A DNA stretch of 64,000 bases from Candidatus Heimdallarchaeota archaeon. GTDB lineage: Archaea; Asgardarchaeota; Heimdallarchaeia; Heimdallarchaeales; Heimdallarchaeaceae. The notes under the pieces were generated by a model, which did no database searches, was not told the DNA's origin, and saw only the letters and a list, made by a program, of their open reading frames with translations. A program made the position numbers and the translations under genes. Location: NCBI GenBank assembly GCA_019057815.1, contig JAHLWR010000010.1, forward strand, positions 32,001-96,000, in the 5' to 3' direction. This document shows, piece by piece, positions 2,178 to 32,293 of this stretch; position 1 is the first letter of the stretch; each line of letters opens with the position of its first letter.

Positions 2178-2795
2178 TCACTTCAACTCCTTTAGAATTC
2201 TTTTACAAATTCGTTCAGGTGACATTTTACACGTTTCTATTACCAATGATACTTCATTCCTATCTAATGTATCTAGAAAAATTTCTCTTTGTTTTAATAT
2301 GAAATCAATAACTATTTTATTCCATTTTTTAACTGATTTTAGCCTTTCAATAAGAGTTTCTTTTTCAGTATCCAAAACAATTTGAATAACTCGTACATTA
2401 GGCAATTTCTGTTTTAATAATCCTTTTTCAGGATACCATCTTTTTTTTTCAGGATTCTTTAGATAGTAGAATGTATCCCCAGATTCACCACCATTGAAAC
2501 CATCTACAATTACTGTGAAACCTTCATCAGTGAAATTTCTTACAAGGTCTAGCGTGTTTTTATCTGCTAGTTTACATTGTTTCCTATATTCACCAGGATA
2601 ATTTCCAGGTTGTAATCCTGTTCTAGATGCAACTAATCCATTGACAACCATATAGCGCAAAATATCTTGCTCTATGAAAACTGAAGGAGAGATTTTTTCA
2701 GCGAGTTTTTTTCCTATAGTTGTTTTACCAACACCTGTTCCCCCTCTGAGGAATATAGCAAAAGATTTCTTATTATTCACCTTTTGTTTCTTCAT
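2178..2795 (-). CDS. P-loop small-molecule/nucleotide kinase (AAA_33/TmrB/CPT-like)
   Basis: Walker A GGTGVGKTT, 'EQDILR', 'VIVDG' and lid 'LIERL'; 205 aa, NMP-kinase-like architecture. Confidence 0.7.
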   Translation of the reverse strand: MKKQKVNNKKSFAIFLRGGTGVGKTTIGKKLAEKISPSVFIEQDILRYMVVNGLVASRTGLQPGNYPGEYRKQCKLADKNTLDLVRNFTDEGFTVIVDGFNGGESGDTFYYLKNPEKKRWYPEKGLLKQKLPNVRVIQIVLDTEKETLIERLKSVKKWNKIVIDFILKQREIFLDTLDRNEVSLVIETCKMSPERICKRILKELK

Positions 2796-2905
2796 TAAAA
2801 CACCATCTTCATAATTCTATATAGATTACTAATTACTAATCACTTTGAATGCAAATTTTTATAAAGAATTAGGTCTTTTTTTTATAGTTTAATAGGTGAG
2901 AATCT

Positions 2906-3895
2906 TTGAATATCGTTGTAACTGGTGGAAAAGGATTTATTGGTTCTAGTGTCTGCGATAGATTGTTAAAAGCAGGTTTTAATGTTATTTCAATTGATAA
3001 TAGAAAGGGCGATAATTATTATTCCATGAATTCCTCTATAATCTCAAAGGAGGTGGATATTACTAATTATACTTCATTGAAAGAAATAATTAGTCAAGCT
3101 GATGGAATCATTCATTTAGCAGCAGTTTCTCGAGTGATTTGGGGAGAGATTTTTCCACAAAAGTGTATTGATGTGAATGTCAAAGGTACTCTAAATATTG
3201 TAGAAGCTGCAAAGCAATCTAAAAGAAAACCTTGGATTATTTTGGGGAGCAGTAGAGAAGTTTATGGGGAAACAGATAGAAATCTTGTAACTGAAGATTA
3301 TCTATCAAATCCCATTAATACTTATGGTATTTCAAAGCTAGCAGCAGAATGTTTAGTAAAGCAATATGCTTTACAGAATGCTTCAAAAACAATGATTCTG
3401 AGATTTTCTAATGTTTATGGAGAGCTTTCTGATATACTTGATAGAGTAACACCAAAGTTTATCCTCAATGCTCTTTTGGATAGACCACTAAGTATCCATG
3501 GAGGGAATCAAATCATGGACTTTACTCATATTGTTGATACTGTCGACGCAATTGAGAGAGCTGTTCATTTTATGAATTCCATTTCTGAGGATAAATTTTT
3601 TGATCATTTCCATATACTTCCTGGAGAATCTAACTCTCTTTATGATTTAATTGAGCATATTAAATCAAATACTAGTAAAAATATCAGAGTTGAACAAGGG
3701 AAGAGAAGAGAATATGACGTTGAGAAATTTACTGGAAATCCTGATAAAGCAAAAGAATTACTTGGATTTAAGTGCAAAATAAAATATAAAGAAGGAGTCA
3801 AAAAAACAATGAATCTCTTCGAAAAAGAACTGCAAAACAACAAACCAAAAGTAGTACAAAAATTTAAGGAGGATTCAAAATGCGAATTGCTATAG
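2906..3895 (+). CDS. NAD-dependent nucleotide-sugar epimerase/dehydratase (extended SDR)
   Basis: TGGKGFIG, HLAA, SSREVYG, YGISK (YxxxK), LRFSNVYG; AGGTGA SD before the TTG start. Confidence 0.9.
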   Translation: MNIVVTGGKGFIGSSVCDRLLKAGFNVISIDNRKGDNYYSMNSSIISKEVDITNYTSLKEIISQADGIIHLAAVSRVIWGEIFPQKCIDVNVKGTLNIVEAAKQSKRKPWIILGSSREVYGETDRNLVTEDYLSNPINTYGISKLAAECLVKQYALQNASKTMILRFSNVYGELSDILDRVTPKFILNALLDRPLSIHGGNQIMDFTHIVDTVDAIERAVHFMNSISEDKFFDHFHILPGESNSLYDLIEHIKSNTSKNIRVEQGKRREYDVEKFTGNPDKAKELLGFKCKIKYKEGVKKTMNLFEKELQNNKPKVVQKFKEDSKCELL

Positions 3896-5103
3896 TAATG
3901 CACGGATTTCCACCAGAATATATGGCTGGCTCTGAGGTTTATTCTTTACATTTAGCATTAGAACTAAACAAAACGCATGAAGTTTTTGTTTTTCATCGAA
4001 TAGATAATCCTTTTTTAAAAGAGTATAAACTAGTAAAATCTGAGTTTCAAGGATTAACTAAATATATGATAAATATCCCTTATCTACCTCATTATTTTGA
4101 AGGAAGGTACATCAATCCAAGAGTTGAAAGAATCTATGAACAATTTCTAAATGAAATACAACCGGATATTATTCATTTTGGTCACCTTAACTATCTGTCT
4201 ACTAATTTGGTTAAAATTTCAAAAGAGAGAGGATTCCAGAACATTTTCACTCTACATGATTATTGGTTATATTGCCCCCGAGGGCAATTGATTAACAGAA
4301 GAGATGAATCTCTTTGTGATGATATTGATTTTGAAATTTGTCTTGAGTGTTTAGATGAATATCTTGTAAATGAAAATAATGCTAAAGACAAAATAAAACA
4401 AAGATTTGATCATATTCAGAAAAATGTGGTTAATTATGTTGATATGTTTATATCTCCCTCCAAGTTTCTTCTAAACAAAATGGTCGAATTAGGGATTCCT
4501 AAAGAGAAAATGGTTTATTTAGATTATGGATTTAATCATGAGTATTTTAGTGATTATAAGAAAAAACCTTCAGAAAAAATCAGATTTGGATATATAGGTC
4601 GTATTATCCCTACAAAGGGAGTTCATCTTATTATTGATGCATTTAACAGAATTACAGATGAGAACACAGAATTGTTTATTTATGGTTCTTCATCAAATGT
4701 TCACTATCTCAAGAGTAGATCTACAAATCAAAATATTCATTTTAAGGGTTATTACAATAATTGGGAAATTGCAAAAGTGTTAGCTGAAATCGATATTCTG
4801 ATTGTTCCTTCAATTTGGTTTGAGAATTCACCATTAGTGATTCACGAAGCATCTTTAGCTCGAATACCCGTTATTGTAACTGACTTGGGAGGAATGGCTG
4901 AATATGTAAAGAATAATGTTAATGGTTTACTCTTTGAGAGAAATAATGTTGATGATCTATTAGATAAAATCATGATGTTTATTAGAAATCCTAATTTAAT
5001 AGATGAATTAGGAAATAATCCTATTTATGTTCAATCTGCTGAAGAACATGCAAAAAGTGTTGAGGAGATTTATTTTAAAATTCTTAAAGGTGTTAATTTT
5101 TGA
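3880..5103 (+). CDS. Glycosyltransferase family 4 (GT-B)
   Basis: HGFPP..AGSE, TLHDYW..CP, GRIIPTKG, PSIWFENSPLVIHEA, DLGGMAE; overlaps the upstream gene. Confidence 0.9.
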   Translation: MRIAIVMHGFPPEYMAGSEVYSLHLALELNKTHEVFVFHRIDNPFLKEYKLVKSEFQGLTKYMINIPYLPHYFEGRYINPRVERIYEQFLNEIQPDIIHFGHLNYLSTNLVKISKERGFQNIFTLHDYWLYCPRGQLINRRDESLCDDIDFEICLECLDEYLVNENNAKDKIKQRFDHIQKNVVNYVDMFISPSKFLLNKMVELGIPKEKMVYLDYGFNHEYFSDYKKKPSEKIRFGYIGRIIPTKGVHLIIDAFNRITDENTELFIYGSSSNVHYLKSRSTNQNIHFKGYYNNWEIAKVLAEIDILIVPSIWFENSPLVIHEASLARIPVIVTDLGGMAEYVKNNVNGLLFERNNVDDLLDKIMMFIRNPNLIDELGNNPIYVQSAEEHAKSVEEIYFKILKGVNF

Positions 5104-6119
5104 AATTGAATAAACTCACTGGTCCTTGGAGAATAACGTTTGATACAAACCCAGATGAGTGTAATATAAGTTGTATAATGTGTGAAAGACAATTCTTAGA
5201 ACGATTAAAAAAGAGAAAAAAACCACGAAGAATGTCTACTTCATTAATTGAGAAAATTGTATTGGAAGGATTGGAAATGGGAGAACTGAGTGAAATTATT
5301 CCTTCCACAATGGGTGAGCCGCTTCTATTTAACAATTTTGATATTTTCTTTGATTTGTGTAATGAAAAAGATCTTAAACTGAATCTAACAACAAATGGAA
5401 CCTTTCCCAGAAGAGACATAGAGGAATGGGGTGACTTGCTTTTACCTGTATGTAGTGACATAAAGATTTCTTGGAATGGTTTAACTAAAGAAACTGATGA
5501 AGGCATTATGCGGGGTAGGAGTCATAATAAGGCACAAACAAGACTGATTGACTTCGTTAAAATTAGAGATAAGCTGAGATATGAAAGTAAAGAAGCTAGT
5601 ACAATAACGCTTCAACTTACATTTTTAGAACAAAATTATAAGGAGATTCCAGGTTTAATTAAATGGGCAATAGATATTGGTATTGATAGAGTTAAGGGTC
5701 ATCATTTATGGATTCATGATCAGAGAGCAGAAAAGTGGTCAATGAGAAGAAGTGAGGATTCAATTAAAAGATGGAATGAAATGATTGCTTCGTTGAATCC
5801 TTCTTATAGAAGAAAAATAAGACTTGAAAATCTCTATCCTATTTCAGCAAAAGAAGAAGTCATTCTTCAAGATTCTGTATGTCCCTTTCTAGGAAGAGAA
5901 GCTTGGATTTCTGCTATAGGAGATTTTAGTCCTTGTTGTGCTCCTGATGATTTAAGAAAACAGCTTGGTGATTTTGGTAATGTAAAAGAAAAGGCTCTTA
6001 GGGAGATTTGGTATAGTGAGGAATATTCTAATCTATGTCTGAATTATGATCATTATTACCTTTGTAAGACATGTAATATGAGGAAAAAACAACAGGATGT
6101 ATATAAGTATGAATCTTAG
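5100..6119 (+). CDS. Radical SAM protein with SPASM/twitch domain
   Basis: CNISCIMC, GEPLL, TTNGT; C-terminal CPF..PCC..FGNV..CKTC. Confidence 0.9.
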   Translation: MKLNKLTGPWRITFDTNPDECNISCIMCERQFLERLKKRKKPRRMSTSLIEKIVLEGLEMGELSEIIPSTMGEPLLFNNFDIFFDLCNEKDLKLNLTTNGTFPRRDIEEWGDLLLPVCSDIKISWNGLTKETDEGIMRGRSHNKAQTRLIDFVKIRDKLRYESKEASTITLQLTFLEQNYKEIPGLIKWAIDIGIDRVKGHHLWIHDQRAEKWSMRRSEDSIKRWNEMIASLNPSYRRKIRLENLYPISAKEEVILQDSVCPFLGREAWISAIGDFSPCCAPDDLRKQLGDFGNVKEKALREIWYSEEYSNLCLNYDHYYLCKTCNMRKKQQDVYKYES

Positions 6120-6840
6120 AAAAATAATAGTATCAAATGATAATACACACCATTTATTTAATGAAAAACCATTATATGCAAAAAAATTCAAACGTGTTTT
6201 CAAATTCCATCCACCAGGATTAGCACCTGTGTTAGATGAATCAGGAGCTTATCATATAGAACTTGATGGAAATGAAGCTTACAAAGAGAGATTCATCAAA
6301 ACTTTTGGTTACTATTTTGATAAAGCTGCAATAATCACGAAAGAGGGATGGGGTCATATTGACATTAAAGGTAATTTAGTCTATGAACCTATTTATGATT
6401 GGGTTGGAAATTATCAAGATGAAGTATGCACGGTACGAGATAAAAAAGGGAGTTATTTCCATATTAAAGATAATGGAGATAGAGTCTATTCTGCGAACAT
6501 GCTTTATGCAGGAGATTTCAGGAATGAAATTGCTGTAGTTAGAAAGAACAATGGATTATGTACCCATATTTATAAAGATGGAACATCAGTTCATGGAAAA
6601 TATTTCATTGATTTAGATGTATTCCATAAAGGATTTGCAAGAGCAAAAAACAAAGAAGGTTGGTTTCACATTAATGAAGAAGGAAAAGAAATCTATCAAG
6701 AAAAATATAAATGCAATGAACCGTTCTACAATGGGTATGCACTAGTTGAAAACATGTTAGGCAATAGACTAATCATAGATGAAGGGGGGAATTATGTACA
6801 CACAGTAATTGAACTTAGTAAGATAGAGGAAATGAAATGA
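6097..6840 (+). CDS. WG-repeat (beta-repeat) protein
   Basis: Repeated F..G.A.V....W.HI...G units (EGWGHIDIKGN, FHKGFARAKNKEGWFHINEEG, FYNGYALV). Likely start is ATG 6109. Confidence 0.75.
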   Translation: MYISMNLRKIIVSNDNTHHLFNEKPLYAKKFKRVFKFHPPGLAPVLDESGAYHIELDGNEAYKERFIKTFGYYFDKAAIITKEGWGHIDIKGNLVYEPIYDWVGNYQDEVCTVRDKKGSYFHIKDNGDRVYSANMLYAGDFRNEIAVVRKNNGLCTHIYKDGTSVHGKYFIDLDVFHKGFARAKNKEGWFHINEEGKEIYQEKYKCNEPFYNGYALVENMLGNRLIIDEGGNYVHTVIELSKIEEMK

Positions 6841-8501
6841 ATGATTTAATGACATTAGGATTTTATGGTCCTACTAATCAATGGACACATGATCATTCAG
6901 CAGTATTGACTAAAAATGGAGAGATACATACATTCCTACAATTGGAAAGATTAACAAGAATTAAAAGAGATAATCGAATTGCTGATTATTTAGCTTTTTT
7001 CCTTAAACAATCAGGATGTGATTTTCAGGATTTGGATAAGCTACAAGTAGGTTATGCTAATTCTTTTTCTCTTGATTCTGATCGTTTTTTTAGAATATCA
7101 GAGAACAACATTATGAGTTCAAACTGTGAAGTGGAATTTAAGCATGAAGGGACTGATAAGCTAGAGGAAACAAAAGTTATTGGTAAAATAGAAAAAAAGT
7201 CAGTGGAAGCTACTATTGTTCCCCATGAAATAGCTCATATTTTTTCATGTATTCCCTTTTACGGAAATTTTAAGGATAATTCTTTACTAATCCACGTTGA
7301 TGGAGCAGCATCTATATCAAATGCATCTGCTTGGATATACAAAAATAATAAGTTACAACTTCTAGAATATACAACAAATTTTCATCATGCTCTCCTGAAT
7401 TTTTCCTATAATGATCTAGTTTTTGATATCTTGAAACTTGAGAGAACAAAACACAAGGGGATGCCAGGAAGATTAATGGGTTACTCATCATATGGAAAAT
7501 GCAACAAAGGATTACTGCAATGGTTAAGAGCAAAGGATTTCTTTTTAGAATATGATAAATTTCCTAAAAAGCTATTTCTGAACGAATCAAAGAAGAAATT
7601 CTCATATAATTTAGACTACATTGAGAATAAACACCGATTTTCTTTTAACATTGCAGCTTGTATTCACAAACACTTTGAGAAAAAAATTCTAGAATTTATG
7701 GAAAAACACAGATTAAATACTGGTGCGGAGTTTTTATACTATTCAGGTGGAGCTGCATTAAATATCAAACTAAACAGGGAAATTGTAAATTCTAGGAAAT
7801 TTAAAGAGGTTTATATTCCACCTACCGCTGATGATTCAGGTGTGGGTTTAGGAGCTGCTTTTTATCTGGAATGGAAAAATAAAAATGATCCAATAATCCA
7901 TAATCCTTTTCTTAATAATTTTGGTCTTAGAAAAGATAAACACAACATTAAATTTTCTGTTGATGATGTATGTAAAGATATATCTAAAGGTAAAATTTTA
8001 GGTATATACACTAATAATGGTGAAGCAGGTCCTAGAGCATTAGGACATCGCTCAATAATTGCAAATCCTTGTATTAAAAGCATGAAACAAAAAGTTAGTG
8101 AGGAAATAAAAGGTAGAGAATGGTATCGTCCTTTAGCTCCTATTATTTTAGAAACAGAGTTGGAAGATTTGTTTACTAATTATGTTAAATCACCAATAAT
8201 GTATTTCATGTTATATGCGTTTAAGGTAAAGGATAATAAAAAAAATGAAATTCCTGCAATAGTTCACAAAGATGGTACTACAAGAGCCCAAGTTGTTAAA
8301 AAGGGCGATAAAAATCTAAGACTTCTTGTAGAAATCTTAATAACACTAAAAGATGATTATGATATTCCTTGTATGATCAACACTTCTTTTAATGCTACGG
8401 GTGAACCTATAGTTCATAGTGAAAAGGATGCATTAGATACAGCAAAAAAGATAGGTTTAGAAAGAGTGGTTATCAATAATGAGTATTTAAAATTGAGATG
8501 A
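6837..8501 (+). CDS. O-carbamoyltransferase (NodU/CmcH/TobZ family)
   Basis: HDHSA, PHEIAH, SGGAALN, DDSG..LGAA, EAGPRALGHRSI, KGREWYRPLAP, HKDGTTRAQ, NTSFN..GEPIV. Confidence 0.92.
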   Translation: MNDLMTLGFYGPTNQWTHDHSAVLTKNGEIHTFLQLERLTRIKRDNRIADYLAFFLKQSGCDFQDLDKLQVGYANSFSLDSDRFFRISENNIMSSNCEVEFKHEGTDKLEETKVIGKIEKKSVEATIVPHEIAHIFSCIPFYGNFKDNSLLIHVDGAASISNASAWIYKNNKLQLLEYTTNFHHALLNFSYNDLVFDILKLERTKHKGMPGRLMGYSSYGKCNKGLLQWLRAKDFFLEYDKFPKKLFLNESKKKFSYNLDYIENKHRFSFNIAACIHKHFEKKILEFMEKHRLNTGAEFLYYSGGAALNIKLNREIVNSRKFKEVYIPPTADDSGVGLGAAFYLEWKNKNDPIIHNPFLNNFGLRKDKHNIKFSVDDVCKDISKGKILGIYTNNGEAGPRALGHRSIIANPCIKSMKQKVSEEIKGREWYRPLAPIILETELEDLFTNYVKSPIMYFMLYAFKVKDNKKNEIPAIVHKDGTTRAQVVKKGDKNLRLLVEILITLKDDYDIPCMINTSFNATGEPIVHSEKDALDTAKKIGLERVVINNEYLKLR

Positions 8502-8505
8502 CAAT

Positions 8506-9084
8506 ATGTTGATTCTTATTGCAAGGCATGGTGAGGATGTGGGTTGCAATACACCCGAAGAAAAAAGACTTCTAACTAAAAGAGGAAGGAAACAAGCAGA
8601 AAAACTAGGAAAGCTAATTAAACATTTTAATCCAACTTACATCTACTCTAGTAGTTTAAACAGAGCAAAGCAAACAGCTAAAGTAGTAGCAGAAATGAGT
8701 AATTTAAGGTTTAGAATAAATGATTTTATTCACGAACAACAATTATTCAAGGAAGAAGAAGAGCTACAACTTTTAAGAGTTAAAAGAGGATATATAGATT
8801 TTAATGCAACAATCATAAAGGGAGAGAAATACACAGACTTAATATCAAGAGCCGAGAAGGTTAAAAGATGGATACTAAGTGAACACCAAATAAAAAAAGA
8901 TAGAATTGTGCTCATTACTCATGGAAGATTCATGACAGTTCTAATTAGCTTATTTCTGGGTTTTAAACCAGATGGATTCTTTCTAGCTAATTATAACACA
9001 TCTTATGCAATCATAAGAATATCCAGAAATTGGAGACCTATGCTAGTTCTTCCATCACCTGACAATTTACATCTTTTAGAATAA
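8506..9084 (+). CDS. Histidine phosphatase (PGM/CobC family)
   Basis: RHGE, LT..GRKQA, SS.L.RA.QTA, ITHG. Confidence 0.9.
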   Translation: MLILIARHGEDVGCNTPEEKRLLTKRGRKQAEKLGKLIKHFNPTYIYSSSLNRAKQTAKVVAEMSNLRFRINDFIHEQQLFKEEEELQLLRVKRGYIDFNATIIKGEKYTDLISRAEKVKRWILSEHQIKKDRIVLITHGRFMTVLISLFLGFKPDGFFLANYNTSYAIIRISRNWRPMLVLPSPDNLHLLE

Positions 9085-9103
9085 ATGTCCATGGGATGGA
9101 AAA

Positions 9104-10234
9104 TTGAGTACTACTGATCTACAAAAAATCAAGGAAAGAAATAGAAGAATTGCATATATTTCTTGGAAGAGAGGAGATTTAATAAACAAAGCAATGCCGA
9201 TAAGAGCTACATTAAACACTACTTTAAAATGTAATTTAAACTGTATAATGTGTCAGTTTCATAGAAATAAAAAAATATCAGAGAGGGTAATTCAAAATAA
9301 TGATGAGTTACATGTAGATTTATTTTTAGATTTCGCCGATCAAGTTTTTCCTACTTTAATTGAGGCTGAAACTACTACTGTCGGAGAACCTTTACTTTCC
9401 AGTTATTTAGATGAGATTATAGAGAAAGCGCTTGAATATAATGTTCTGTTATATTTTACAACAAATGGTCTTTTGTTAAAAGAAGAACTAATTAGTAAAT
9501 TGATTCCAACCCTTAGTAACCTTGTAATCTCAATTGATGCAGTAAACCATAAATTATATGAAAAAATTAGGAAGGGAAGTTGTTTTGCAAAATTAGAAAA
9601 AAATATTAAGAAATTCATAGAAATTAGAAATTCTTGTGAGAAATATAAACCTGAATTAACATTACAGATGACATTAATGAAAATGAATATTGAAGAACTT
9701 CCAAAGATGGTTCAATATGCAAACAAGATAGGAGCAAATAATGTAAAAGCATATCATGCATATATCTTCGAAAAAAAAATGAAGAATCAATCGTTATTCT
9801 ATCATAGGGAGATTGCAGAAAAATTCATTAAAGAAGCAAAAACCCTTGGGAAAAAACTAGGAGTAAACACTTTTCTACCGAGATTCTTTCCAGAAAATTG
9901 TTCGAATATTTATCCTGATCCAATCATATTTGATTTTCCCCCTTGTTTTTTCTTATGGTACGAAACATTCATAGAACCAAATGGTGATATTTCTCCATGT
10001 TTTTTTCCAACAAGACAAAAAATAGGGAATATCAAAGAAAGGACTTTTAATGAAATTTGGAATAATAGACAATATCAAATAATGCGCAGAGAAGTAATAA
10101 GACAACCTCCTAAAGGATATTGCAAGAATTGCGAGCTAAGATACACATATTTGAAAGATTACACAGGACCTGGGATTATAGAATCACAATTTATCTTAAT
10201 AGATGATAAAAGAGCGAGATTGTATCAATCATGA
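9104..10234 (+). CDS. Radical SAM protein with SPASM domain
   Basis: CNLNCIMC, GEPLL, TTNG, ISID; C-terminal C..W....I.PNGDISPC..IGNI..CKNC. Confidence 0.9.
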   Translation: MSTTDLQKIKERNRRIAYISWKRGDLINKAMPIRATLNTTLKCNLNCIMCQFHRNKKISERVIQNNDELHVDLFLDFADQVFPTLIEAETTTVGEPLLSSYLDEIIEKALEYNVLLYFTTNGLLLKEELISKLIPTLSNLVISIDAVNHKLYEKIRKGSCFAKLEKNIKKFIEIRNSCEKYKPELTLQMTLMKMNIEELPKMVQYANKIGANNVKAYHAYIFEKKMKNQSLFYHREIAEKFIKEAKTLGKKLGVNTFLPRFFPENCSNIYPDPIIFDFPPCFFLWYETFIEPNGDISPCFFPTRQKIGNIKERTFNEIWNNRQYQIMRREVIRQPPKGYCKNCELRYTYLKDYTGPGIIESQFILIDDKRARLYQS

Positions 10235-11109
10235 CACTTGATATTGTATGTGCAATTGATAATTCCTTATATTATCAAATGTTATGTAAAGGTTTAATTA
10301 AATCATTGCTTAAAAATTCCTGTCAGAATAAATTTAATATTCATGTTTTAAAAGATTGCAAAAATCATTATCCTTTGGATGATCTGAAAAATAAAATTAG
10401 TTTTCATAAGGTTAAGCCATTAAATATAATATGTGGATGTGTAAAATCAAAAACAACTTTTGCTAAACTAGAAATCCCTAATATTAAACAATTTAAGAAT
10501 CTAGAGAGAATCTTGTATTTGGATGTGGACACCTTCTGCTTAAGCGACATAACTTCGTTAGAAAAATTCAAATTTGAGAAAATTGCTATGGTAAACCCTG
10601 GAGGAAGTCTTTATCTTAAAGAGTTTTTACAACGAGTTTTTCATAAAAAGATAAAACCTTTAACTTATTTCTATAGAGGAAAAAAGCATTTAATAGCAGA
10701 TAAAGATCAAAAATATTCCAATGCTGGAGTTATGCTAATCAATCCAAAAATATGGTATATGAAACGAATTTCAGATCAAATAAAGAGGATTATTCTAACA
10801 CATTGTCAATATATGTATACAAGTGACGAAATGGCAATAAATCTCTTTTTCAAAGGGATGGTTGATCAACTTCCTGAAGAATATAATACTATGTCTTTTT
10901 CAAAAGTTAAAAATCCTAAAATAATACATTTTAATACCAAAAAACCAATATTAGGTAGTTCTTTATATTTTTTTCACAACTGGTTAAGTTTATTCGATAA
11001 AAATGATAAAAAAGTATTATTAAAACTTGAAGCAATGAGAGGAAAATCTGATAAATCTAGAATTATTAAAATCAAATCCGATGCATACCATGAATTTCTA
11101 AAGTCTTGA
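10231..11109 (+). CDS. Glycosyltransferase family 8
   Basis: RILYLDVD (DxD), NAGVMLIN, DEMAIN, IIHF..KP. Confidence 0.85.
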   Translation: MTLDIVCAIDNSLYYQMLCKGLIKSLLKNSCQNKFNIHVLKDCKNHYPLDDLKNKISFHKVKPLNIICGCVKSKTTFAKLEIPNIKQFKNLERILYLDVDTFCLSDITSLEKFKFEKIAMVNPGGSLYLKEFLQRVFHKKIKPLTYFYRGKKHLIADKDQKYSNAGVMLINPKIWYMKRISDQIKRIILTHCQYMYTSDEMAINLFFKGMVDQLPEEYNTMSFSKVKNPKIIHFNTKKPILGSSLYFFHNWLSLFDKNDKKVLLKLEAMRGKSDKSRIIKIKSDAYHEFLKS

Positions 11110-11171
11110 ATATCACTTTTAATTAATATACTCTAAAACAAAACATAAAAAATCACGATATCTCTTTTTCC

Positions 11172-13060: not shown

Positions 13061-13135
13061 TTCAATGCTTTTTCCACACAGTCATCAGTTGTACTTAATG
13101 GAATATCATGAGATAAGAAACTTGATATGAACGTT

Positions 13136-13786: not shown

Positions 13787-13795
13787 TTTATCACT

Positions 13796-22096: not shown

Positions 22097-22102
22097 TTTA
22101 TC

Positions 22103-24877: not shown

Positions 24878-25758
24878 TAGCTAACACTCCTTGGCTTGAG
24901 ATTCCAGTTATAAATTCCACCACGTTTCTTGAATTTTTCATAGTGCCAACCTACTTGTTGAATTGCTGAATAAGGGTCTACTTCAAGAATAGATAGACTA
25001 TATTTCAGATAACCCTCAGAGTTCTGAAAAAACCTACCCATAGCGTCAAGCATAAGATAAGAACCTCTCATAAGTTCATTATTCTCTGCAATGGGATTCA
25101 ATGATTCATGCTTCTGTACAAAATTGTCAAATTGCTCTGATGATATCTGAAGAGACTGAAAATATTCATCATTCTGACCTTTTACAGATAATACTTGGAA
25201 TACTTTCCATCTTTGAGGATTGAGTTCAATAATCAAATCAGTCATCTCTTCTTCCCAGTTCATACTAGTAACAACAGTATTGATTTTAAGTTTGATACCA
25301 GCTGTATGAATTACTTTTACTATTTCTTTAATCTTTTGGATATGATTTCCTGAACCTCTTCCAAGTTTATATTGTGTTTCTTCTTTTGAACTATCTAAAC
25401 TTAAAGCAATCCAATCTATGTAAGATTTGTACTCTTCGATAAAATTACCCGTTAGTAATGAACCACTTGTTATCAGCATTGTTGTCATATCTAGCTTTTT
25501 AGCTTCTATTATTAAATCTCCTAAATGAGGACAGAGTAACGGTTCTCCACCTGTAAGAGATAATTTCTCTGTTCCTGCAGAATTGAGGATTGAAGGTATT
25601 TTTAGTGCTTCTTCTTTTGATAATAAAGATTTTATCTCATTAAAGGTTCCAAAACAGAATTTGCATTTATTCGTACATCTAGGCCACAAATGCCAGTTTA
25701 CACTTATCAAAGGAAAAGAGGAATTATTAAGACAAGAATAATTCTCTTTCATTTTCAT
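24877..25758 (-). CDS. rsad2: Viperin (RSAD2-like antiviral radical SAM ddhNTP synthase)
   Basis: SVNWHLWPRCTNKCKFCF, GGEP, KINTVV, PQRWKVFQ, ENNELMRGSYLMLD..GRF and C-terminal FKKRGGIYNW, all viperin-specific motifs (cf. animal SVNYHFTRQCNYKCGFCF..FLKRGGKYIW). Confidence 0.93.
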   Translation of the reverse strand: MKMKENYSCLNNSSFPLISVNWHLWPRCTNKCKFCFGTFNEIKSLLSKEEALKIPSILNSAGTEKLSLTGGEPLLCPHLGDLIIEAKKLDMTTMLITSGSLLTGNFIEEYKSYIDWIALSLDSSKEETQYKLGRGSGNHIQKIKEIVKVIHTAGIKLKINTVVTSMNWEEEMTDLIIELNPQRWKVFQVLSVKGQNDEYFQSLQISSEQFDNFVQKHESLNPIAENNELMRGSYLMLDAMGRFFQNSEGYLKYSLSILEVDPYSAIQQVGWHYEKFKKRGGIYNWNLKPRSVS

Positions 25759-26228
25759 TAATGAGTAGCTCCTAGGATTATATCAGATTTTGATAGATTC
25801 ACGAAATTTGACTGTTTGAAAAAGAAGAAATCAGTCGCTTCAGTTGCTAGATTTCCATTAGCTATTTTATAAGGAAACACTCTATTGAAGTCTAAATCAT
25901 AAAACATTGTTTGAAATTCTCTAAATCTGTCGTTCGAAAGAATAGCAGTATCTAATTCTCTAGCGTAAGCTAGTATAGCTATGTCATCATATATTCTTGG
26001 GTCAAGTAAAAGAACATCATCATCCTCTTGAAATCTTTTCTTGAATTTCTTGAATCCTGGTAAAATAAAGAGTGGCGATACTCCATTATTCTTTGCCCAA
26101 ATTCGGACATAATCAATATTATGAAGATTGCTTTCTCCTTTTGGATGTTTTATAACATTAAGTCCATCAACTATTAAGATATTTTTTTGGTTTTCTCTTT
26201 TTGTTTTTCGTTTTGTTTGGAGTTGCAT
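25758..26228 (-). CDS. NYN/PIN ribonuclease of the Zc3h12a (Regnase-1/N4BP1)-like type
   Basis: ILIVDGLNV..YDDIAIL.YA....AILSNDRFREF..RVFPYKI; all four catalytic Asp present. ATG at 26228 is the likely start; TAATG overlap with viperin. Confidence 0.8.
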   Translation of the reverse strand: MQLQTKRKTKRENQKNILIVDGLNVIKHPKGESNLHNIDYVRIWAKNNGVSPLFILPGFKKFKKRFQEDDDVLLLDPRIYDDIAILAYARELDTAILSNDRFREFQTMFYDLDFNRVFPYKIANGNLATEATDFFFFKQSNFVNLSKSDIILGATH

Positions 26229-26335
26229 TAAATATACAAAGAAGAACAAGATATTAAAAGTTTTTCTTTTATATTTAAAATTAATATTGTATTATACAAA
26301 ACAATCTTTTTAAATATGTCTGCTCTCACAACATT
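26228..26335. promoter_or_regulatory. Divergent promoter region with candidate operator palindromes
   Basis: TTGTAT-T-ATACAA perfect inverted repeat at 26287-26299. Imperfect IR TTAAATATACAAAGAAGAAC / GTTTTTCTTTTATATTTAA at 26228-26278. TATA-like TTTTAAATA upstream of the CARF gene. Confidence 0.45.
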
Positions 26336-26980
26336 ATGCGCAACTTGCATATTGCGACTGTTGGTAAATCACCTGGTCCAATCATTGAAGGAATTAGAGT
26401 ATATCCTATTGATGATTTGTATATGTTGTATAATGAGGGGTCCCATAAGGAAGCTTTAGAAATAAAAAAATCAGCAATCAATTGGAAGCTTAAGTGCAAC
26501 ATGATTGAGGTTGATCAATTTGATATCGAAAATATTTTTGTTACAATCCTGTTGATTCAAAAACGAAACCTTGGAAGTAAAATTTACATAAACGTAACAG
26601 GAGGTACAAAAATAATGTCAAACGCAGCTTTTCTTGCAGGATATCTAATAGGTGCTACTATTTATTATATTAGAGAAGCTCAAGAAAATGAATCTCTTCA
26701 AGATTGTGTTATTGAGCTTCCTGTACCTAAAATACAATTAGATGACATCGATGAAAATCAACAAAAAATTTTGTCTCATTTGCTAAAAAATAATGGAAAG
26801 ATAACGACAGGAACTACAGAACTAAGTAAGAACCTTCATTTAAAACCTCAATTAATAAGTTATCATCTTAAAAGATTGGAAATTGCTAATCTAATCATAA
26901 ACGAAAAAAAAGGAAGAATAAATATTATAAGTTTAACAAGCGCAGGTAGGTTTGCAGCAAAATACCATGGTATTTTATAA
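26336..26980 (+). CDS. CARF + winged-HTH transcriptional regulator (Csa3/DUF6293-like)
   Basis: HIATVG.SP..I..GI, INVTGGTKIM (CARF); C-terminal ELSKNL..KPQLISYHLKRLE..LI..LTSAGR (ArsR/MarR wHTH). Confidence 0.85.
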   Translation: MRNLHIATVGKSPGPIIEGIRVYPIDDLYMLYNEGSHKEALEIKKSAINWKLKCNMIEVDQFDIENIFVTILLIQKRNLGSKIYINVTGGTKIMSNAAFLAGYLIGATIYYIREAQENESLQDCVIELPVPKIQLDDIDENQQKILSHLLKNNGKITTGTTELSKNLHLKPQLISYHLKRLEIANLIINEKKGRINIISLTSAGRFAAKYHGIL

Positions 26981-26999
26981 ATTTGAGAGATGGAAAATA

Positions 27000-27950
27000 T
27001 TGAATATTCTCATCACAGGAGGTTTGGGTTTTATTGGTTCTCATCTTGTTAAATTCCTTTTAGAAAAAACAGAGAACAATTTAATCATTTTAGATAACTT
27101 ATCAACTGGTAAGAAATCAAATATTTACAATCTGGTTAATAAAGAGAATATCTCCAGAGTAGAAATTATTAAGGAAACAGTTGAAAATGTAGACCAAATA
27201 AAGCTAAAAAATATTTCAAAAATATTCCATTTGGCAAGTCATGCTAGTCCAACAGATTTTAGAAAACACTCTCTAGAAATTATGATGACTAACTCTATTG
27301 GAACAAAGAAAGTTTTAGATATAGCGCTTAAGAACAATGCTACATTCATCTTAGCTTCAACATCTGAAATATACGGTAATCCATTAATTCATCCACAAAA
27401 CGAAGATTATTATGGTAACGTTAATACACTAGGAATAAGAGCATGTTATGATGAATCTAAGCGTTTTTCGGAAACACTTTCGATGATTTATAAAAGAGAT
27501 AAAAATTTGGATGTTAGAATTCTTAGAATTTTCAACACATATGGAACTAATATGAGACTTAATGACGGGAGAGTTATACCAACTTTCTTGAAACAAGCAT
27601 TAACAGGTAACCCCATAACTGTCAGAGGGGATGGAAAACAATCAAGATCGTTATGTCATGTTTCTGACCTTATAAATGGGATTTATTTGATTTCGGTTAT
27701 TAAAAACATTAAATACAATGTGTACAACATTGGGAATCCAGAAGAAATAGAAATAATCGAGTTAGCTGAAATGATAAAAAAAATGACTTGTTCATGTTCG
27801 AAAATCAAATATATAGAGGAATTAGACGATGAACCTCGAAGAAGAAGACCGGATATTAATAGAATAAAGGACGAAACAGGTTGGTCACCCACTATTTCGT
27901 TAAGGGAGGGACTTAAGAAGATTATACCACATTACAAAGAGATGTTATAA
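27000..27950 (+). CDS. UDP-glucuronate decarboxylase-like SDR (UXS family)
   Basis: TGGLGFIGSHL, HLASHASP, ASTSEIYG.P..HPQ.E.YYGNVN..G.RACYDESKR, RIFNTYG..M..NDGRV. TTG start at 27000 is likely. Confidence 0.88.
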   Translation: MNILITGGLGFIGSHLVKFLLEKTENNLIILDNLSTGKKSNIYNLVNKENISRVEIIKETVENVDQIKLKNISKIFHLASHASPTDFRKHSLEIMMTNSIGTKKVLDIALKNNATFILASTSEIYGNPLIHPQNEDYYGNVNTLGIRACYDESKRFSETLSMIYKRDKNLDVRILRIFNTYGTNMRLNDGRVIPTFLKQALTGNPITVRGDGKQSRSLCHVSDLINGIYLISVIKNIKYNVYNIGNPEEIEIIELAEMIKKMTCSCSKIKYIEELDDEPRRRRPDINRIKDETGWSPTISLREGLKKIIPHYKEML

Positions 27951-27966
27951 AAGAAAAAAGAATAAG

Positions 27967-28965
27967 GTGGCAGCAATTTCAGTTAAAAACAATAAATTTG
28001 CTAATATTGACAAACAAAATTCTTTAGTTATTGATGTGACCTATAAATGTAATTCTAGCTGTTATTACTGTCAATGGGGAGAATCAAGGAAATCGTCAAA
28101 GGAAATAAATTATGAGAAATTACTTGTTCCTGAAAAAACTTTGTCATCTATAGGTATTGAGCGAGTTGTTCTTTCAGGAGGAGAACCACTTCTTCATAAT
28201 AGAATAATAGACATAATAGATTATTACAACCAGAAAAAAGTTGATTCCATTATCTTATTAACAAATGGAATATTATTAGATCTGTCAAAACTTCAACTAT
28301 TGTTAAAGCATGGAGTGACTGGAATGACTTTCTCAATTGATTCACTTGATTTTGAAGTCATGAAAAAATCCAGAAACGTTACAAAAGAAGTACACCAAAA
28401 AATTATCAATAATATTAATTCGATTGTGAAATTTCGAGAAACCAAAAGTTTTGAATTGGGAATAAATTGCGTTATCTCCTCTTCCAATTTGCGTTGGGAT
28501 TATCTTCATCCTCTTGTTCAGTTTTGTAATCAAAACAACATTGATTGGCTGAAATTTCAGCCAATTTTTGACGATGGTTATCTATCGTTAAATGCACCTC
28601 AACTTAAACTGAGTAAGAATCATTCGGAAGACGTCATTGAAATAGGAAAAAAGATACTAAATTTTGCAACAATAAACACCAATAGTATAGAATTCTGGAA
28701 ATCACTTTCATCGGTTTTGCATGGTAAAAAACTTCTAGGTAAGTCATGTGGGCTAGTTAAAAGACAAACTATTCTAATTAGAGGGGATTTGAAATTTTGC
28801 TATTGGTTAGATAATCCAATTTACTCTTCATGTTCTATGGAATTAACTAAAGAGAAAATTCAAGAAATAAGAGATAAATTTAAAGATTCAAAAGAAAGGT
28901 GTAAAACAGGAATGTATTGTTTCTGTCTACAATCTTTATCACATAAATGGGATATTTCAAAATGA
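27967..28965 (+). CDS. Radical SAM protein with C-terminal Cys cluster
   Basis: CNSSCYYC, SGGEPLL, TNG, SIDS; C-terminal C..FC..C...CFC. Confidence 0.88.
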   Translation: MAAISVKNNKFANIDKQNSLVIDVTYKCNSSCYYCQWGESRKSSKEINYEKLLVPEKTLSSIGIERVVLSGGEPLLHNRIIDIIDYYNQKKVDSIILLTNGILLDLSKLQLLLKHGVTGMTFSIDSLDFEVMKKSRNVTKEVHQKIINNINSIVKFRETKSFELGINCVISSSNLRWDYLHPLVQFCNQNNIDWLKFQPIFDDGYLSLNAPQLKLSKNHSEDVIEIGKKILNFATINTNSIEFWKSLSSVLHGKKLLGKSCGLVKRQTILIRGDLKFCYWLDNPIYSSCSMELTKEKIQEIRDKFKDSKERCKTGMYCFCLQSLSHKWDISK

Positions 28966-30083
28966 ATGCTTCAAGTATTGATATCATAATTCCCTCATTT
29001 AGAGCGGATTCAGAATATCTAATTCCAATTTTCAATTTAGATAAACCTGAAAATGTCGAAATTAGATATTTTCTCATAATTGATAATCCAGAAATCGAAA
29101 TTTGTGAAACATTAAATGAATATTTAGAACACAAGAATGTTTGTGTTATAAAAAATGAAACAAATTTGGGAGCATCAGCTTCTAGAAACAAGGGTATTGA
29201 GGAAGGGACTGGGGATTGGTTACTATTTTTAGATGATGACATTACTGTAAATCGAGATTTATTAATTAAGTACATTAATGCGATTACAGAATCAGAAAGT
29301 AAAGTGCCTGGGTTTGTTGGAGTTACAGATTTTCTGGATCCTATTAATAGTTTCACAAAAGGTGTTAATGCAAGCGATATTCTTACATTCTTTCCTTTAG
29401 CTGAATATGAGGGAGAGATGTCTTGGGGTGTTACTGCTAATCTCCTGCTTAAAAGAGAAGCTGTCGGAAATTTTAGATTATAAGATGAAATATTCCCGAA
29501 ATTTGGAGGTGGAGAAGATATTGATTTGTGTTTAAATATTGTTCAACAAACAGGTATCAAATTCAAAACTATTCCTGAAGCTAAGGTTACTCACCCATGG
29601 TGGAATGATGGAAAGAGATCATATACACGATTCAGAAGATGGGCTTATGGTGACAGCATATTACCTAAACTTTTTCCGCAATATAAATATTATAATTTTC
29701 CCAATGTAATTGAATCTTTAATCTTGTTTGCCGTTTTAGGGATTGTCTTATCTGTCCTAAAACTTTCACCTATCCCTCTTATCTTATGTTTAGGTTCTGT
29801 AATTCTAGGTGAGATACTAATTGAATGGATGAAGATAATCAAAAACAAAAAGATATATTCACTAATCACTGCTTTAGAATCAGTATTAATTCGAACATCA
29901 AATGATCTAGGAAGAGCATTAGGGAACATCAAAAGGTTAAACTTCGCTGGATTTATGCAGAGATTTGATTATTTTTGTGATGGTAAGCACATTAAGAATG
30001 AAAGGATTTGGGCAGGATTGAAAACATTGTCTTATTCCATCTTTGCATCCATATTTGTTTATTCTTTTTGGGTATTATGTTAA
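28962..30083 (+). pseudogene. GT2 glycosyltransferase with C-terminal TM helices, interrupted by one in-frame TAA (29481-29483)
   Basis: ORFs 28947-29483 and 29526-30083 share a frame. Read-through gives ..NFRL*DEIFPKFGGGEDIDLC.., joining IIIP/GASASRN.G/FLDDD to the catalytic ED motif. Confidence 0.8.
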
Positions 30084-30097
30084 AGGAAAGATATAGT

Positions 30098-31456
30098 ATG
30101 GTAAACGGAATCATTATGTCCAACAATTCAGAGAACATATCAATTGATAAAATACTGCAAATGTACTCAGAAGCTAAAAAAACTAATGATTATCAATTCT
30201 GGATATACACAGGTTTATTAGCTGAGATTTTGAAACAATATCATTATTCTATTGATTGTTATACAAATGCATTAAAAATGCAAATTTCTCCATTTTTAAG
30301 AACTTCTTTAGCAAGAGCACAAGCAGGAGTAGGTCAGTGGGAAGGTTCGCTTAAGACTTTATTGTCACTTAGCGTTAGTGAGTTTTCTTCTGTAATAAGC
30401 AACTATAATCTTTGCTTAACTATAGGTTTCCTTCCATATAATCTACAAAGAAAAGTAACTCAACATTTCAAGGAACAAGGTTTGATTGTACTTGATGATA
30501 TTGAAAATCTTGAAAATGCTTTAGCTGTAAGAGAGGAAAAGTACATAAATCAAAAATACAGGGATAGTTCACAACTTCAGATCCAAACTTATATAAAGTT
30601 CTCCAAACTTTTGATTGGTGATTTTGATCCTAGAAGAATGACTGAATTTCTACAGATGGGTTACACAGAAAATATTGCTCAGAAGATTCTAAAAACCAAT
30701 CCCGAAGCAGTAGAAACTTCAATTCTACGGAAAGCTAAATTAAAAGAACATGATAGAGAATATCAGAAACTTGATAGATTGGATGGTTGGTTAACTCCTC
30801 TGGAAGGAAGGGTCTTAGCTGTTTTAGCAGAAAATGTTGAATATAATTCAGTAATTGTGGAAATTGGTAGTTGGAAAGGGAAATCATCTTGTTTTTTAGG
30901 AACTGGTAGTAGTATAGGGAAAAAACCCTTAGTATTCTGCATAGATCCTCATAATTGGACGGATAATGTTGAAGTAGCAAATACTTTCAGCTCTTGGACG
31001 AGTACCATTGAATATTTGAGTCTAGAAAATTTAGTAATAAATATTCGTAAAGAATCTGAACATGTAGCAAGAGATTTTAGTGAAAATGTAGGATTGCTCT
31101 TTGTAGATGGGGATCATTCTAGAGAATCTCTAATCATAGATATTGAAAACTGGCTTCCCAAACTAGAAAAAGGTGCTTATATTGCTTTTCACGATGCATA
31201 TTTTCCTGATGTTTTCGAAGTACTTCAAGAAAGAATATTCAGAAGTGAAAAATTCAGAATTGTTGATTTTGTTGAAGGATTATTAATTGTTCAATTTTCA
31301 CCCAATAGAAATTCAACAAGAACCTACTCTGAACTTGTCATCTGGCTATATTTTATTTACAAATCACAAATATTCAAAAAATTAGAAGATAAAAGAGTTT
31401 CAGAACTAGTAAATATTGCATTATCTTATAGAGAGAATCTACAAGCAGGAGTTTAG
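30098..31456 (+). CDS. TPR-like N-terminus + class I SAM methyltransferase (Methyltransf_24)
   Basis: DGWL...EG, VEIGSWKGKS, CIDP, LFVDGDHS, L.KG.YIAFHD. Start uncertain (30098 or 30116). Confidence 0.8.
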   Translation: MVNGIIMSNNSENISIDKILQMYSEAKKTNDYQFWIYTGLLAEILKQYHYSIDCYTNALKMQISPFLRTSLARAQAGVGQWEGSLKTLLSLSVSEFSSVISNYNLCLTIGFLPYNLQRKVTQHFKEQGLIVLDDIENLENALAVREEKYINQKYRDSSQLQIQTYIKFSKLLIGDFDPRRMTEFLQMGYTENIAQKILKTNPEAVETSILRKAKLKEHDREYQKLDRLDGWLTPLEGRVLAVLAENVEYNSVIVEIGSWKGKSSCFLGTGSSIGKKPLVFCIDPHNWTDNVEVANTFSSWTSTIEYLSLENLVINIRKESEHVARDFSENVGLLFVDGDHSRESLIIDIENWLPKLEKGAYIAFHDAYFPDVFEVLQERIFRSEKFRIVDFVEGLLIVQFSPNRNSTRTYSELVIWLYFIYKSQIFKKLEDKRVSELVNIALSYRENLQAGV

Positions 31457-31457
31457 A

Positions 31458-32144
31458 GTGAAAAACAAAGCAAGAATTAACAAAATAATAGAGAAAATAG
31501 AGAATAAGGGAGGATCTAAGTTAATTGTCATCCTTCGTCACTCAGATAGAGAAGAAATTTCAGATGCCAAAAAATCTTTTGACGTTCCTCTAACTGATCA
31601 AGGTAAGGCAATTGCTCGAATACTTGGAAATGAATTATCAAAGATTAATTCATATAGACTATATCATAGTGATGTACCTAGATGTAGAAATACGGCAAAA
31701 AGTATTGCAGAAGGAATTGAAGCAAGTCAAGGATCAGTCACCATCCTAGGAGAAAGAGATTATCTTGGTGGATTTTTCATTAAAGATTTTAATAGTGTTT
31801 TAGGATTAGCTAATCAAGTCACTGGACTTGAATTCATGCTTAAATGGTTTGCTGGAGAAATAGAGGAATCAGAAATCATACCCTTCAACAAAGCAACAAA
31901 TTATCTACTAAGTTCTTTATTAAATGAATCAAATGAGAATGAAAGAAGCGAAGTTGACATATACATAACTCATGATTGGAACATGATGCTACTCCTATAC
32001 AAGATTTTCAATTTTCAAGAGAGCAAGTTAAGATGGCCTTATTATCTCGAACCCATTTTCATTGATATCAATAATTCAGAAACACATCTCTTTTATGAAG
32101 GTGAAAAACGATTTTTAAATATAGATTTTCCAAGGAGGTATTAA
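31458..32144 (+). CDS. Histidine phosphatase family protein
   Basis: ILRHSDR, LTDQG, S.VPRC.NTA, ITHD. GTG start at 31458 is likely. Confidence 0.82.
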   Translation: MKNKARINKIIEKIENKGGSKLIVILRHSDREEISDAKKSFDVPLTDQGKAIARILGNELSKINSYRLYHSDVPRCRNTAKSIAEGIEASQGSVTILGERDYLGGFFIKDFNSVLGLANQVTGLEFMLKWFAGEIEESEIIPFNKATNYLLSSLLNESNENERSEVDIYITHDWNMMLLLYKIFNFQESKLRWPYYLEPIFIDINNSETHLFYEGEKRFLNIDFPRRY

Positions 32145-32149
32145 TAAGA

Positions 32150-32293
32150 ATGACAAAAAGTTTCATGAATTCTGCTAGGATTAATCATTTAGAACAGAAA
32201 ATTGAAAAAGTTGAAAAAACGCTCTCTGAGGTTCTAAAAAGGTTAGAAAGAATTGAGAAGGAATTAGAAAAAACCTCATCCCTAAATTTCTGA
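32150..32293 (+). CDS. 47-aa coiled-coil microprotein (not in the ORF track)
   Basis: AAGGAGGT SD at ~32132-32139, then MTKSFMNSARINHLEQKIEKVEKTLSEVLKRLERIEKELEKTSSLNF*; clear heptad pattern. Confidence 0.55.
   Translation: MTKSFMNSARINHLEQKIEKVEKTLSEVLKRLERIEKELEKTSSLNF

Follow-up and report, generated by a model that had tools for sequence, protein, structure and literature searches.

A viperin operon and two sugar-modification cassettes side by side in a probable defence island of a Heimdallarchaeia genome

Few immune enzymes are common to archaea, bacteria and animals; viperin is among them, and the Heimdallarchaeia are the closest known relatives of the eukaryotes. In the present work, we have analysed a stretch of 64,000 nucleotides (hereafter the window) from a Candidatus Heimdallarchaeota archaeon (GenBank assembly GCA_019057815.1, contig JAHLWR010000010.1, positions 32,001 to 96,000), in which a viperin gene lies between two operons for enzymes of sugar modification. 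The genes of the window, whose base composition is about 30% guanine plus cytosine, were mapped from a list of its open reading frames (ORFs) and from Pfam, NCBIfam and PADLOC scans, which bore out the gene inventory given in a first-pass annotation of this DNA. Homologues with names also assign the window to the Heimdallarchaeia, a class of the Asgard archaea. No RNA genes were found in the window by a tRNA scan and an Rfam scan, and no phage structural genes are present in it; the window is a chromosomal island of an archaeon. We consider it probable that it represents a Heimdallarchaeia defence island in which three self-contained units (viz. the viperin unit, cassette 1 and cassette 2) stand side by side.

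The product of the viperin gene (24877-25758, minus strand) scores 288.4 bits against the NCBIfam model NF038283 (cutoff 180), matches all three of the PADLOC models for prokaryotic viperins (pVip; best E value 1e-83) and contains the radical S-adenosylmethionine (SAM) motif CxxxCxxC as CTNKCKFC at residue 28. Viperin is the second gene of a tight minus-strand operon (26249-19471), in which it is preceded by an NYN RNase (25758-26249) and followed by a superfamily 1 (SF1) helicase resembling MkoA (22103-24877; Pfam AAA_11/AAA_12), a protein of 368 amino acids (aa) that is here termed unk368 (20990-22096) and a PLD nuclease of the PLDc_2 type (19471-20997). The earlier placing of viperin between two sugar operons is right as to position, and the gene belongs to a five-gene operon of its own rather than standing alone. 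In the PADLOC scan the helicase matches the MkoA model PDLC03920 with an E value of 1.7e-89; the PLD nuclease matches the MkoB model PDLC03922 at only 1.7e-9, and DrmC models score higher. Divergent from this operon, across a spacer of 86 bp, is the gene for a Csa3-like regulator (26336-26980, plus strand; PADLOC CARF3 4.6e-50), in which both a CARF domain and a winged helix-turn-helix (wHTH) domain were found (Pfam HFX_2341_N, CARF_Card1 and HTH_24) and which scores 52 bits against TIGR01884, under the cutoff of 60.2.

Cassette 1 spans positions 2178-9084 and, with a tail that extends to 12149, makes up operon 1. Its plus-strand genes encode a short-chain dehydrogenase/reductase (SDR) of the nucleoside diphosphate (NDP)-sugar epimerase/dehydratase type (2906-3895; Pfam Epimerase 3.8e-48), a GT4 glycosyltransferase (3880-5103; Pfam Glycos_transf_1 6.8e-32, and 28.2 bits against GT4-conflict), a radical SAM/SPASM enzyme (5100-6119; Pfam SPASM, motif CNISCIMC), a WG-repeat beta-propeller protein (6097-6840; Pfam WG_beta_rep), a carbamoyltransferase of the NodU/CmcH type (6837-8501; Pfam Carbam_trans_N/C) and a histidine phosphatase (8506-9084; Pfam His_Phos_1 8.5e-24). 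These are followed on the same strand by a second radical SAM/SPASM enzyme (9104-10234) and by two accessory glycosyltransferases of the tail, viz. a GT8 (10231-11109) and a GT2-like enzyme (11172-12149), all three assigned by Pfam. A P-loop kinase (2178-2795, minus strand; Pfam AAA_18/AAA_33) is divergent from these genes, and a SAVED-domain protein (622-2169, plus strand; Pfam SAVED 1.1e-8, with matches to PADLOC SAVED-effector models) lies beyond it. No confident transmembrane (TM) segment was predicted in the proteins of operon 1.

Cassette 2 (operon 2) lies on the other side of viperin, and its plus-strand genes, assigned by Pfam, encode an SDR (26952-27950), a radical SAM enzyme resembling MoaA and viperin (27967-28965), a membrane GT2 glycosyltransferase with 2-3 predicted C-terminal TM segments (28947-30083), a Methyltransf_24 protein with one predicted N-terminal TM segment (30008-31456) and a histidine phosphatase (31416-32144). 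The GT2 gene is interrupted by an in-frame TAA (29481-29483) at a position where its two closest orthologues (L031 and L034) have a conserved glutamine (CAA). The orthologues are single proteins of about 370-390 aa, and what looks like a short GT2 followed by a 185-aa unknown protein is in fact one interrupted gene, in which the TAA reflects either a genuine nonsense mutation or a fault of the assembly.

The conservation of the viperin unit was examined by searching for viperin in 60 relatives and fetching up to 40 kb around ten of the homologues where the contigs allowed it (several were short); every protein of the window was then run by tblastn against these stretches. The CARF-wHTH regulator, the helicase, unk368 and the PLD nuclease recur beside viperin in G004, G054, G056, G036, G042 and G038, and the helicase is also found with viperin in the closest relative, G022, where it is accompanied by the NYN RNase, a partner recovered in that genome alone. 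The core of the viperin unit was found in at least 7 other Heimdallarchaeia genomes with neither sugar operon alongside, and the up to 40 kb around the viperin of the ten relatives yielded no gene from either of these operons. In the complete genome G004, the CARF gene is divergent from an operon of viperin, helicase, unknown protein and PLD nuclease across a spacer of about 106 bp, and no other genes of the window are found there. The viperin unit without the NYN RNase is conserved across the class Heimdallarchaeia. In a viperin tree whose deeper branches are unresolved, the window's viperin falls in a Heimdallarchaeia clade associated with the helicase and the PLD nuclease.

The regulator had been read in the first-pass annotation as shared by viperin and operon 2. 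In at least six relatives without operon 2, the CARF-wHTH gene is found next to viperin in the divergent orientation, and it is thus a fixed partner of the viperin operon. It would act as a cyclic-oligonucleotide-sensing regulator that switches on a combined response of the viperin operon, in which 3'-deoxy-3',4'-didehydro (ddh)-nucleotide chain terminators would be joined by a Mokosh-type degradation of RNA or nucleic acid. A CARF-like gene that is divergent from two tandem viperin paralogues was also seen in Methanolobus vulcani (L129, G400:C3, 7280-9915), which indicates that the pairing of CARF and viperin is not confined to the Asgard archaea.

In its helicase and nuclease the operon is comparable to the type I Mokosh system (MkoA helicase and MkoB PLD nuclease), with which it shares an MkoA-type SF1 helicase and a PLD nuclease in one operon; it differs in that its PLD nuclease is closer to the DrmC models and that viperin, the NYN RNase and unk368 belong to the same operon. 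Prokaryotic viperins, which Bernheim and colleagues reportedly described in 2021, are said to be either stand-alone or associated with kinases (see also Shomar et al., 2023, bioRxiv 10.1101/2023.09.13.557418). In the papers that we searched, the partners named for them are nucleotide kinases, to which one paper adds an archaeal tetratricopeptide repeat (TPR) partner. Unlike these, the viperin of the window has as its partners the CARF-wHTH regulator, the MkoA-like helicase, unk368 and the PLD nuclease, together with the NYN RNase here and in G022. No glycosyltransferase, helicase or CARF partners are named in the literature that we searched on viperin evolution and archaeal defence, and in the literature searched Asgard viperin and Mokosh are treated separately, with no linkage of viperin to Mokosh-like genes described. 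The Heimdallarchaeia keep viperin in a conserved operon with a UPF1/MOV10-like helicase and a PLD nuclease and with a regulator of the cyclic-nucleotide type.

Cassette 1 has a very different distribution. With the WG-repeat gene as its signature marker, at least 532 cassette 1 loci were found in species genomes from many bacterial and archaeal phyla. The WG-repeat protein itself has homologues that are 44-65% identical across the Asgard archaea, Methanolobus and many bacterial phyla, with 31 invariant columns. Its AlphaFold2 model (predicted local distance difference test score 97) has a beta-propeller-like fold, and a fold search returned generic propeller matches alone (to BamB and to designed propellers, with TM-scores of about 0.45-0.5), without any enzymatic relative. 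Among 160 WG loci that were fetched, the radical SAM enzyme is present in 139, the GT4 in 121, the SDR in 42 and the carbamoyltransferase in 16; an O-methyltransferase takes the place of the last of these in most other cassettes, and in many homologues the WG propeller is fused to a carbamoyl- or O-methyltransferase. A colinear seven-gene copy of cassette 1 (37-56% identity) is present in G053 and further copies in L047, L044 and L130, and the second radical SAM/SPASM enzyme has orthologues in G053 (53% identity) and G411 (35%). The tail genes for GT8 and the GT2-like enzyme lack conservation among other cassettes: they are absent from G053 and Methanolobus, and one GT2_4 match was found among 80 metagenome loci.

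The divergent kinase (2178-2795) belongs to cassette 1, since orthologous kinases occupy the same place in L047 (63% identity) and L044 (58%) and in P0177, P0218, P0225 and P0240 the WG protein carries a fused AAA_18/AAA_33 kinase domain. Homologues of the SAVED protein also lie immediately upstream of the cassette in L047 (61-1473; 34% identity) and L130 (5255-6661; 27%), and the presence of this protein in three Heimdallarchaeia-like loci hints at a tie to cyclic-oligonucleotide signalling. Defence genes were found in each of five other cassette 1 contexts that we inspected. These contexts include an island of another Heimdallarchaeia genome with a type IIG restriction-modification gene, an Apyc1-like enzyme and an OAS-like protein; a locus with SNF2, PLD and UvrD genes adjoining a type IV secretion coupling protein; another locus with an AAA_15/21 protein and DUF3696; one with a Dam methylase amid phage-like genes; and G053 (L043, G053:C84), where a Zc3h12a-type NYN RNase (9006-9485) lies directly upstream of the cassette 1 homologue. 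A fusion of a methyltransferase with a nucleotidyltransferase (691-1419) was seen directly downstream of the same homologue.

The closest described counterpart of cassette 1 is the Undecim Cluster of the Wolbachia prophage WO (WD0611-WD0621, with the core UC2-UC4), the function of which is unknown (PMC9203015). Its genes for the SDR, the GT4, the radical SAM/SPASM enzyme and the WG protein are colinear with those of cassette 1 (38%, 37%, 51% and 48% identity, respectively; tblastn against MN180251), and both gene sets are mobile and laterally transferred. The two differ in several respects: WO has a fusion of the GT4 and radical SAM genes and a longer WG gene (531 aa); the GlmU-like protein, two threonine aldolases, transporter, UDP-glucose 6-dehydrogenase and DMT permease of WO have no counterpart among the window's ORFs from 1 to 35 kb; the window adds the carbamoyltransferase, the histidine phosphatase, the second radical SAM enzyme, the divergent kinase and the SAVED neighbour; and the copy in the window lies in an archaeal chromosomal island, not in the eukaryotic association module of a WO prophage. 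Our literature search for a conflict system of GT4, radical SAM/SPASM and WG proteins returned nothing specific beyond the description of the Undecim Cluster; Kaur et al. (2020) name glycosyltransferases in passing.

Cassette 1 is a soluble and horizontally mobile pathway. In the scheme that we propose, the SDR would prepare an NDP-sugar donor, the GT4 would move the sugar onto a small acceptor, and the two SPASM radical SAM enzymes would oxidise or rearrange it; the WG propeller would present the intermediate to the carbamoyl- or O-methyltransferase, and the kinase and histidine phosphatase would govern the state of phosphorylation. A decorated sugar or nucleoside would result, probably for use in conflict with viruses, a role suggested by the mobility of the cassette, its occurrence amid defence and mobile-element genes, its SAVED neighbour in Heimdallarchaeia lineages and its repeated fusion elsewhere with viperin, with or without a nucleoside monophosphate (NMP) kinase. 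Pathways for nucleoside and aminoglycoside antibiotics (viz. tunicamycin, butirosin with BtrN, blasticidin with BlsE, and TobZ) employ the same classes of enzymes (SDR, radical SAM, glycosyltransferase, phosphatase and carbamoyl- or methyltransferase). This similarity is at superfamily level only (E values of 3e-5 to 1e-8) and was assessed through solved structures: BtrN is the nearest solved structure for the first radical SAM enzyme of cassette 1, with a weak match (E value 3e-5). SPASM enzymes often modify peptides, and a pathway for a glycopeptide of the RiPP type, made on the ribosome and modified after translation, was also considered for cassette 1; it was set aside as a general explanation, as the 110-bp spacer before the SDR gene is too small for a precursor gene and none is found in the operon of L138, one of the viperin-joined loci described next.

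In the window, 12.7 kb separates the end of operon 1 from viperin, and the two are on opposite strands in separate transcription units. A ferredoxin (12533-13060, plus strand), a module of ParA, a SAP-domain protein and an unknown protein (13136-14886, minus strand) and a gene for a 980-aa protein (15648-18590, plus strand) intervene as unrelated genes between operon 1 and the viperin operon. A census of 400 Asgard genomes found the WG marker in 18, viperin in 26 and both in 6, and only in the present genome do the two share a contig, such that 17 of the 18 Asgard cassette genomes have no cassette on a viperin contig; in G036, which is assembled in 10 contigs, the marker and viperin are on different contigs.

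In other lineages the two are joined. Of 87 testable loci, 6 (~7%) have viperin directly upstream of cassette 1 and on its strand, a locus being testable where at least 1.5 kb of sequence is available upstream of the cassette, and G411 is a further case. The association that the first-pass annotation proposed to look for by phylogenetic profiling thus exists at low frequency next to genuine viperins for the operon 1 type, and no instance of it was found for operon 2. The joined loci (L077, L086, L128, L135, L138, L172 and L208) come from Methanolobus vulcani, two related genomes, one related metagenome contig, one bacterial contig and two further metagenome contigs, four of them having been added by a metagenome scan. 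All of the cassette-linked viperins score above the NF038283 cutoff (248-293 bits, and 246 bits for the M. vulcani viperin), and in the viperin tree they form at least 2 groups (a Methanolobus group and a metagenome group).

In M. vulcani (L077) the viperin stop codon is 49 nt before a same-strand series of SDR, GT4, radical SAM, WG, phosphatase and carbamoyltransferase genes. Among 101 genomes of the Methanosarcinaceae, the cassette is present in 5 and viperin in 18, and 3 of the 5 cassette genomes have viperin no more than 5 kb away on the same strand. In G411 (L128, G411:C1:1659000-1678999) three viperin paralogues, two of which are each followed by an AAA_17/18 kinase, flank a cassette that also holds the second radical SAM/SPASM enzyme; a TPR protein, which matches the known archaeal viperin and TPR type, was seen after the last viperin. 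L138 is a translationally coupled operon of overlapping genes for viperin, cytidylate kinase, GT4, radical SAM, histidine phosphatase, O-methyltransferase and WG protein, and is assigned to a bacterium because a sigma-54 activator is present, and the order in L135 is viperin, GT4, radical SAM, a fusion of WG and O-methyltransferase, and histidine phosphatase. This fusion of viperin to an Undecim-like cassette in other lineages is a further difference from the described pVip systems. A widespread mobile cassette, which shares its core with the Undecim Cluster of WO, has accordingly been joined to viperin several times in archaea and bacteria. The repeated fusion of the cassette 1 family with viperin and NMP kinases is more than co-residence in an island, and a viperin-linked tailoring pathway is plausible for cassettes of this type; the family mostly works without viperin.

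It may be asked whether cassette 1 cooperates with viperin in trans in the window as well, turning nucleotides or ddh-nucleotides into a glycosylated and carbamoylated nucleoside antiviral, the island being then an unfused form of the Methanolobus and bacterial operons. Such cooperation would accord with the finding of at least 3 lineages in which viperin is placed directly upstream of the cassette (in one of them in a translationally coupled operon with a cytidylate kinase), with the carbamoyltransferase subtype that the Methanolobus cassettes share with that of the window, with the kinase and phosphatase, which suit the handling of nucleotides, and with the joint occurrence of cassette 1 and viperin in 6 Asgard genomes when about 1.2 would be expected, a figure for which related genomes are not independent and which defence-rich genomes would also yield. 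We nevertheless regard it as unlikely, given that a directly upstream viperin on the same strand is lacking in ~93% of the testable cassette loci, that nearly all of the Asgard cassette genomes have the cassette apart from any viperin contig, that the window's viperin and the cassette-linked viperins fall in different clades, and that shared operons can also arise from the co-regulation of independent defences. The wider proposal that Undecim-like cassettes tailor antivirals of the nucleoside type, with the viperin ddh-nucleotide as a possible input and, in the window, a glycosylated and carbamoylated ddh-nucleoside made in trans, appears rather improbable to us, and it would, if true, reveal a new class of immune small molecule and provide a function for the Undecim Cluster of Wolbachia. 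If the fusion reflects shared chemistry, then antiviral nucleoside derivatives that have not been described would be expected, and culturable systems (Methanolobus and the compact bacterial operon) would be at hand for learning the product of the Undecim Cluster.

Cassette 2, in contrast, has no tie to viperin except its position in the window. Its radical SAM enzyme is rare in the lineage (present in 2 of 61 relatives and in 4 of the 400 Asgard genomes), and among the 400 Asgard genomes it was not found on a viperin contig outside the present genome. Homologues in the databases that are 36-66% identical occur in Methanolobus, Bacteroidota, cyanobacteria and others, and neither viperin nor CARF was found in any of 7 other operon 2 contexts (0/7). 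The whole six-gene cassette is present without viperin or CARF on a 10-kb contig of G024 (L031), flanked on one side by an NYN protein and a C5 methylase and on the opposite side by an Mrr nuclease; colinear copies occur in this genome, L034 and L035, and a core of radical SAM and GT2 genes occurs in L036-L040. This core is kept in six database contexts, often accompanied by an SDR, methyltransferase or histidine phosphatase gene, and on a Bacteroidota contig it lies amid housekeeping genes (for tryptophan synthesis and urocanase). A single-protein scan of genome contigs with the operon 2 radical SAM enzyme returned no confirmed relative.

Downstream of operon 2, an N4/N6 DNA methylase, a Dam-type methylase and a 211-aa ORF lie on mixed strands (32719-35247; Pfam). 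Homologues of the two methylases were seen beside CARF and viperin in G054 and G056 (L017 9905-12467; L016 5219-12599), and one of the 211-aa ORF in G054, which suggests that these genes and the CARF-viperin pair form a conserved island core. As they adjoin CARF and viperin in G054 and G056 where cassette 2 is lacking, the arrangement fits an insertion of operon 2, even though the genes are oriented differently, and operon 2 looks like cargo placed downstream of CARF.

The description of the two operons as carrying the same toolkit is correct for categories at the level of Pfam, and does not extend to the proteins themselves: the SDRs are only about 25-30% identical, the radical SAM enzymes belong to different subfamilies, and a GT4 in one operon stands against a GT2 in the other. 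An origin of the two operons by duplication was rejected for the same reasons. Likewise, no flippase, polymerase or oligosaccharyltransferase family was found by Pfam from 1 to 36 kb, as had been noted, although the view that membrane or transport functions are absent is not fully correct, in light of the GT2 and the methyltransferase of operon 2. Their predicted TM segments point to a membrane-linked acceptor rather than a soluble nucleotide, and cassette 2 would most likely modify a lipid-linked sugar or head group. The radical SAM pathways for lipid head groups (viz. the calditol synthase Cds, and HpnI/HpnJ for a cyclitol ether) offer an analogy for operon 2 only, in which a membrane glycosyltransferase would be followed by a radical SAM step and a phosphatase would be needed (PMC13459092). 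The likeness to Cds and HpnJ is drawn as an analogy, the radical SAM enzyme of operon 2 being MoaA/viperin-like, with weak matches among solved structures to MoaA, a viperin-like enzyme and BlsE (E values of 1e-4 to 5e-8) that hold at the superfamily level.

These properties of cassette 2 raise the question of whether both operons are ordinary genes for envelope glycans or glycolipids, situated in a variable region that phages have diversified and without a direct link to immunity. The predicted membrane GT2 and TM-anchored methyltransferase of operon 2, the housekeeping surroundings of its core in Bacteroidota and the SDR, GT2, GT4 and GT8 families, which are typical of glycan loci, would all be expected on this account. 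It does not explain why the cassette 1 proteins have no confident TM segments, why no flippase, polymerase or oligosaccharyltransferase is nearby, or why cassette 1 occurs on a prophage, in mobile and defence contexts and fused to viperin and NMP kinases; as an explanation for both operons, we judge it quite unlikely.

The first-pass annotation had gone further and proposed one viperin-centred biosynthetic cluster, in which the ddh-nucleotide would be dephosphorylated, glycosylated and decorated by both operons under a shared CARF regulator. Enzymes that could carry out such steps (phosphatases, glycosyltransferases, radical SAM and group-transfer enzymes) are encoded in both operons, the CARF gene abuts operon 2, and viperin is fused, with or without an NMP kinase, into operons of the cassette 1 type elsewhere. 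No relative with the same viperin operon, however, has either sugar operon beside viperin; operon 2 is without viperin in all of the other contexts found, its key enzymes are predicted to be anchored in the membrane and its GT2 is truncated; and operon 1 is separated from viperin by the distance and the intervening genes given above. With operon 2 seemingly membrane-directed, possibly broken and tied to viperin by position here alone, the idea of one cluster drawing on both operons finds no support, and we consider it very improbable.

Co-residence in one defence island is not evidence for one pathway, and the most probable account of these results is in our view that viperin and both cassettes are adjacent as cargo of the island, probably not as steps of one pathway. 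Several observations weigh against this account of adjacent, independent cargo. The CARF gene ends at most 17 nt ahead of the operon 2 SDR, so that operon 2 is probably co-transcribed with the CARF regulator, which would couple both to one signal, and the in-frame stop in its GT2 gene could stem from a misassembly, the genome being derived from a metagenome. The excess of Asgard genomes with both cassette 1 and viperin, read with the qualifications given with it, and the recurrence of their operonic fusion elsewhere mean that the two may cooperate in trans here. The contigs of many relatives are also short, and linkage could be overlooked there.

Some further associations of these gene families were observed outside of the window. 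An Archaeal ATPase_2/DUF234 protein flanks the viperin-cassette 1 operon of M. vulcani (L077 3973-5403), and Archaeal ATPase_2/DUF234 proteins also flank cassette 2 in a Methanolobus sp. (L035 6529-10898), where a DUF8426-EVE protein then follows. On a metagenome contig (L140), an MkoA-like helicase (3756-5939) that is 37% identical to that of the window lies 3 kb from a WG-repeat gene.

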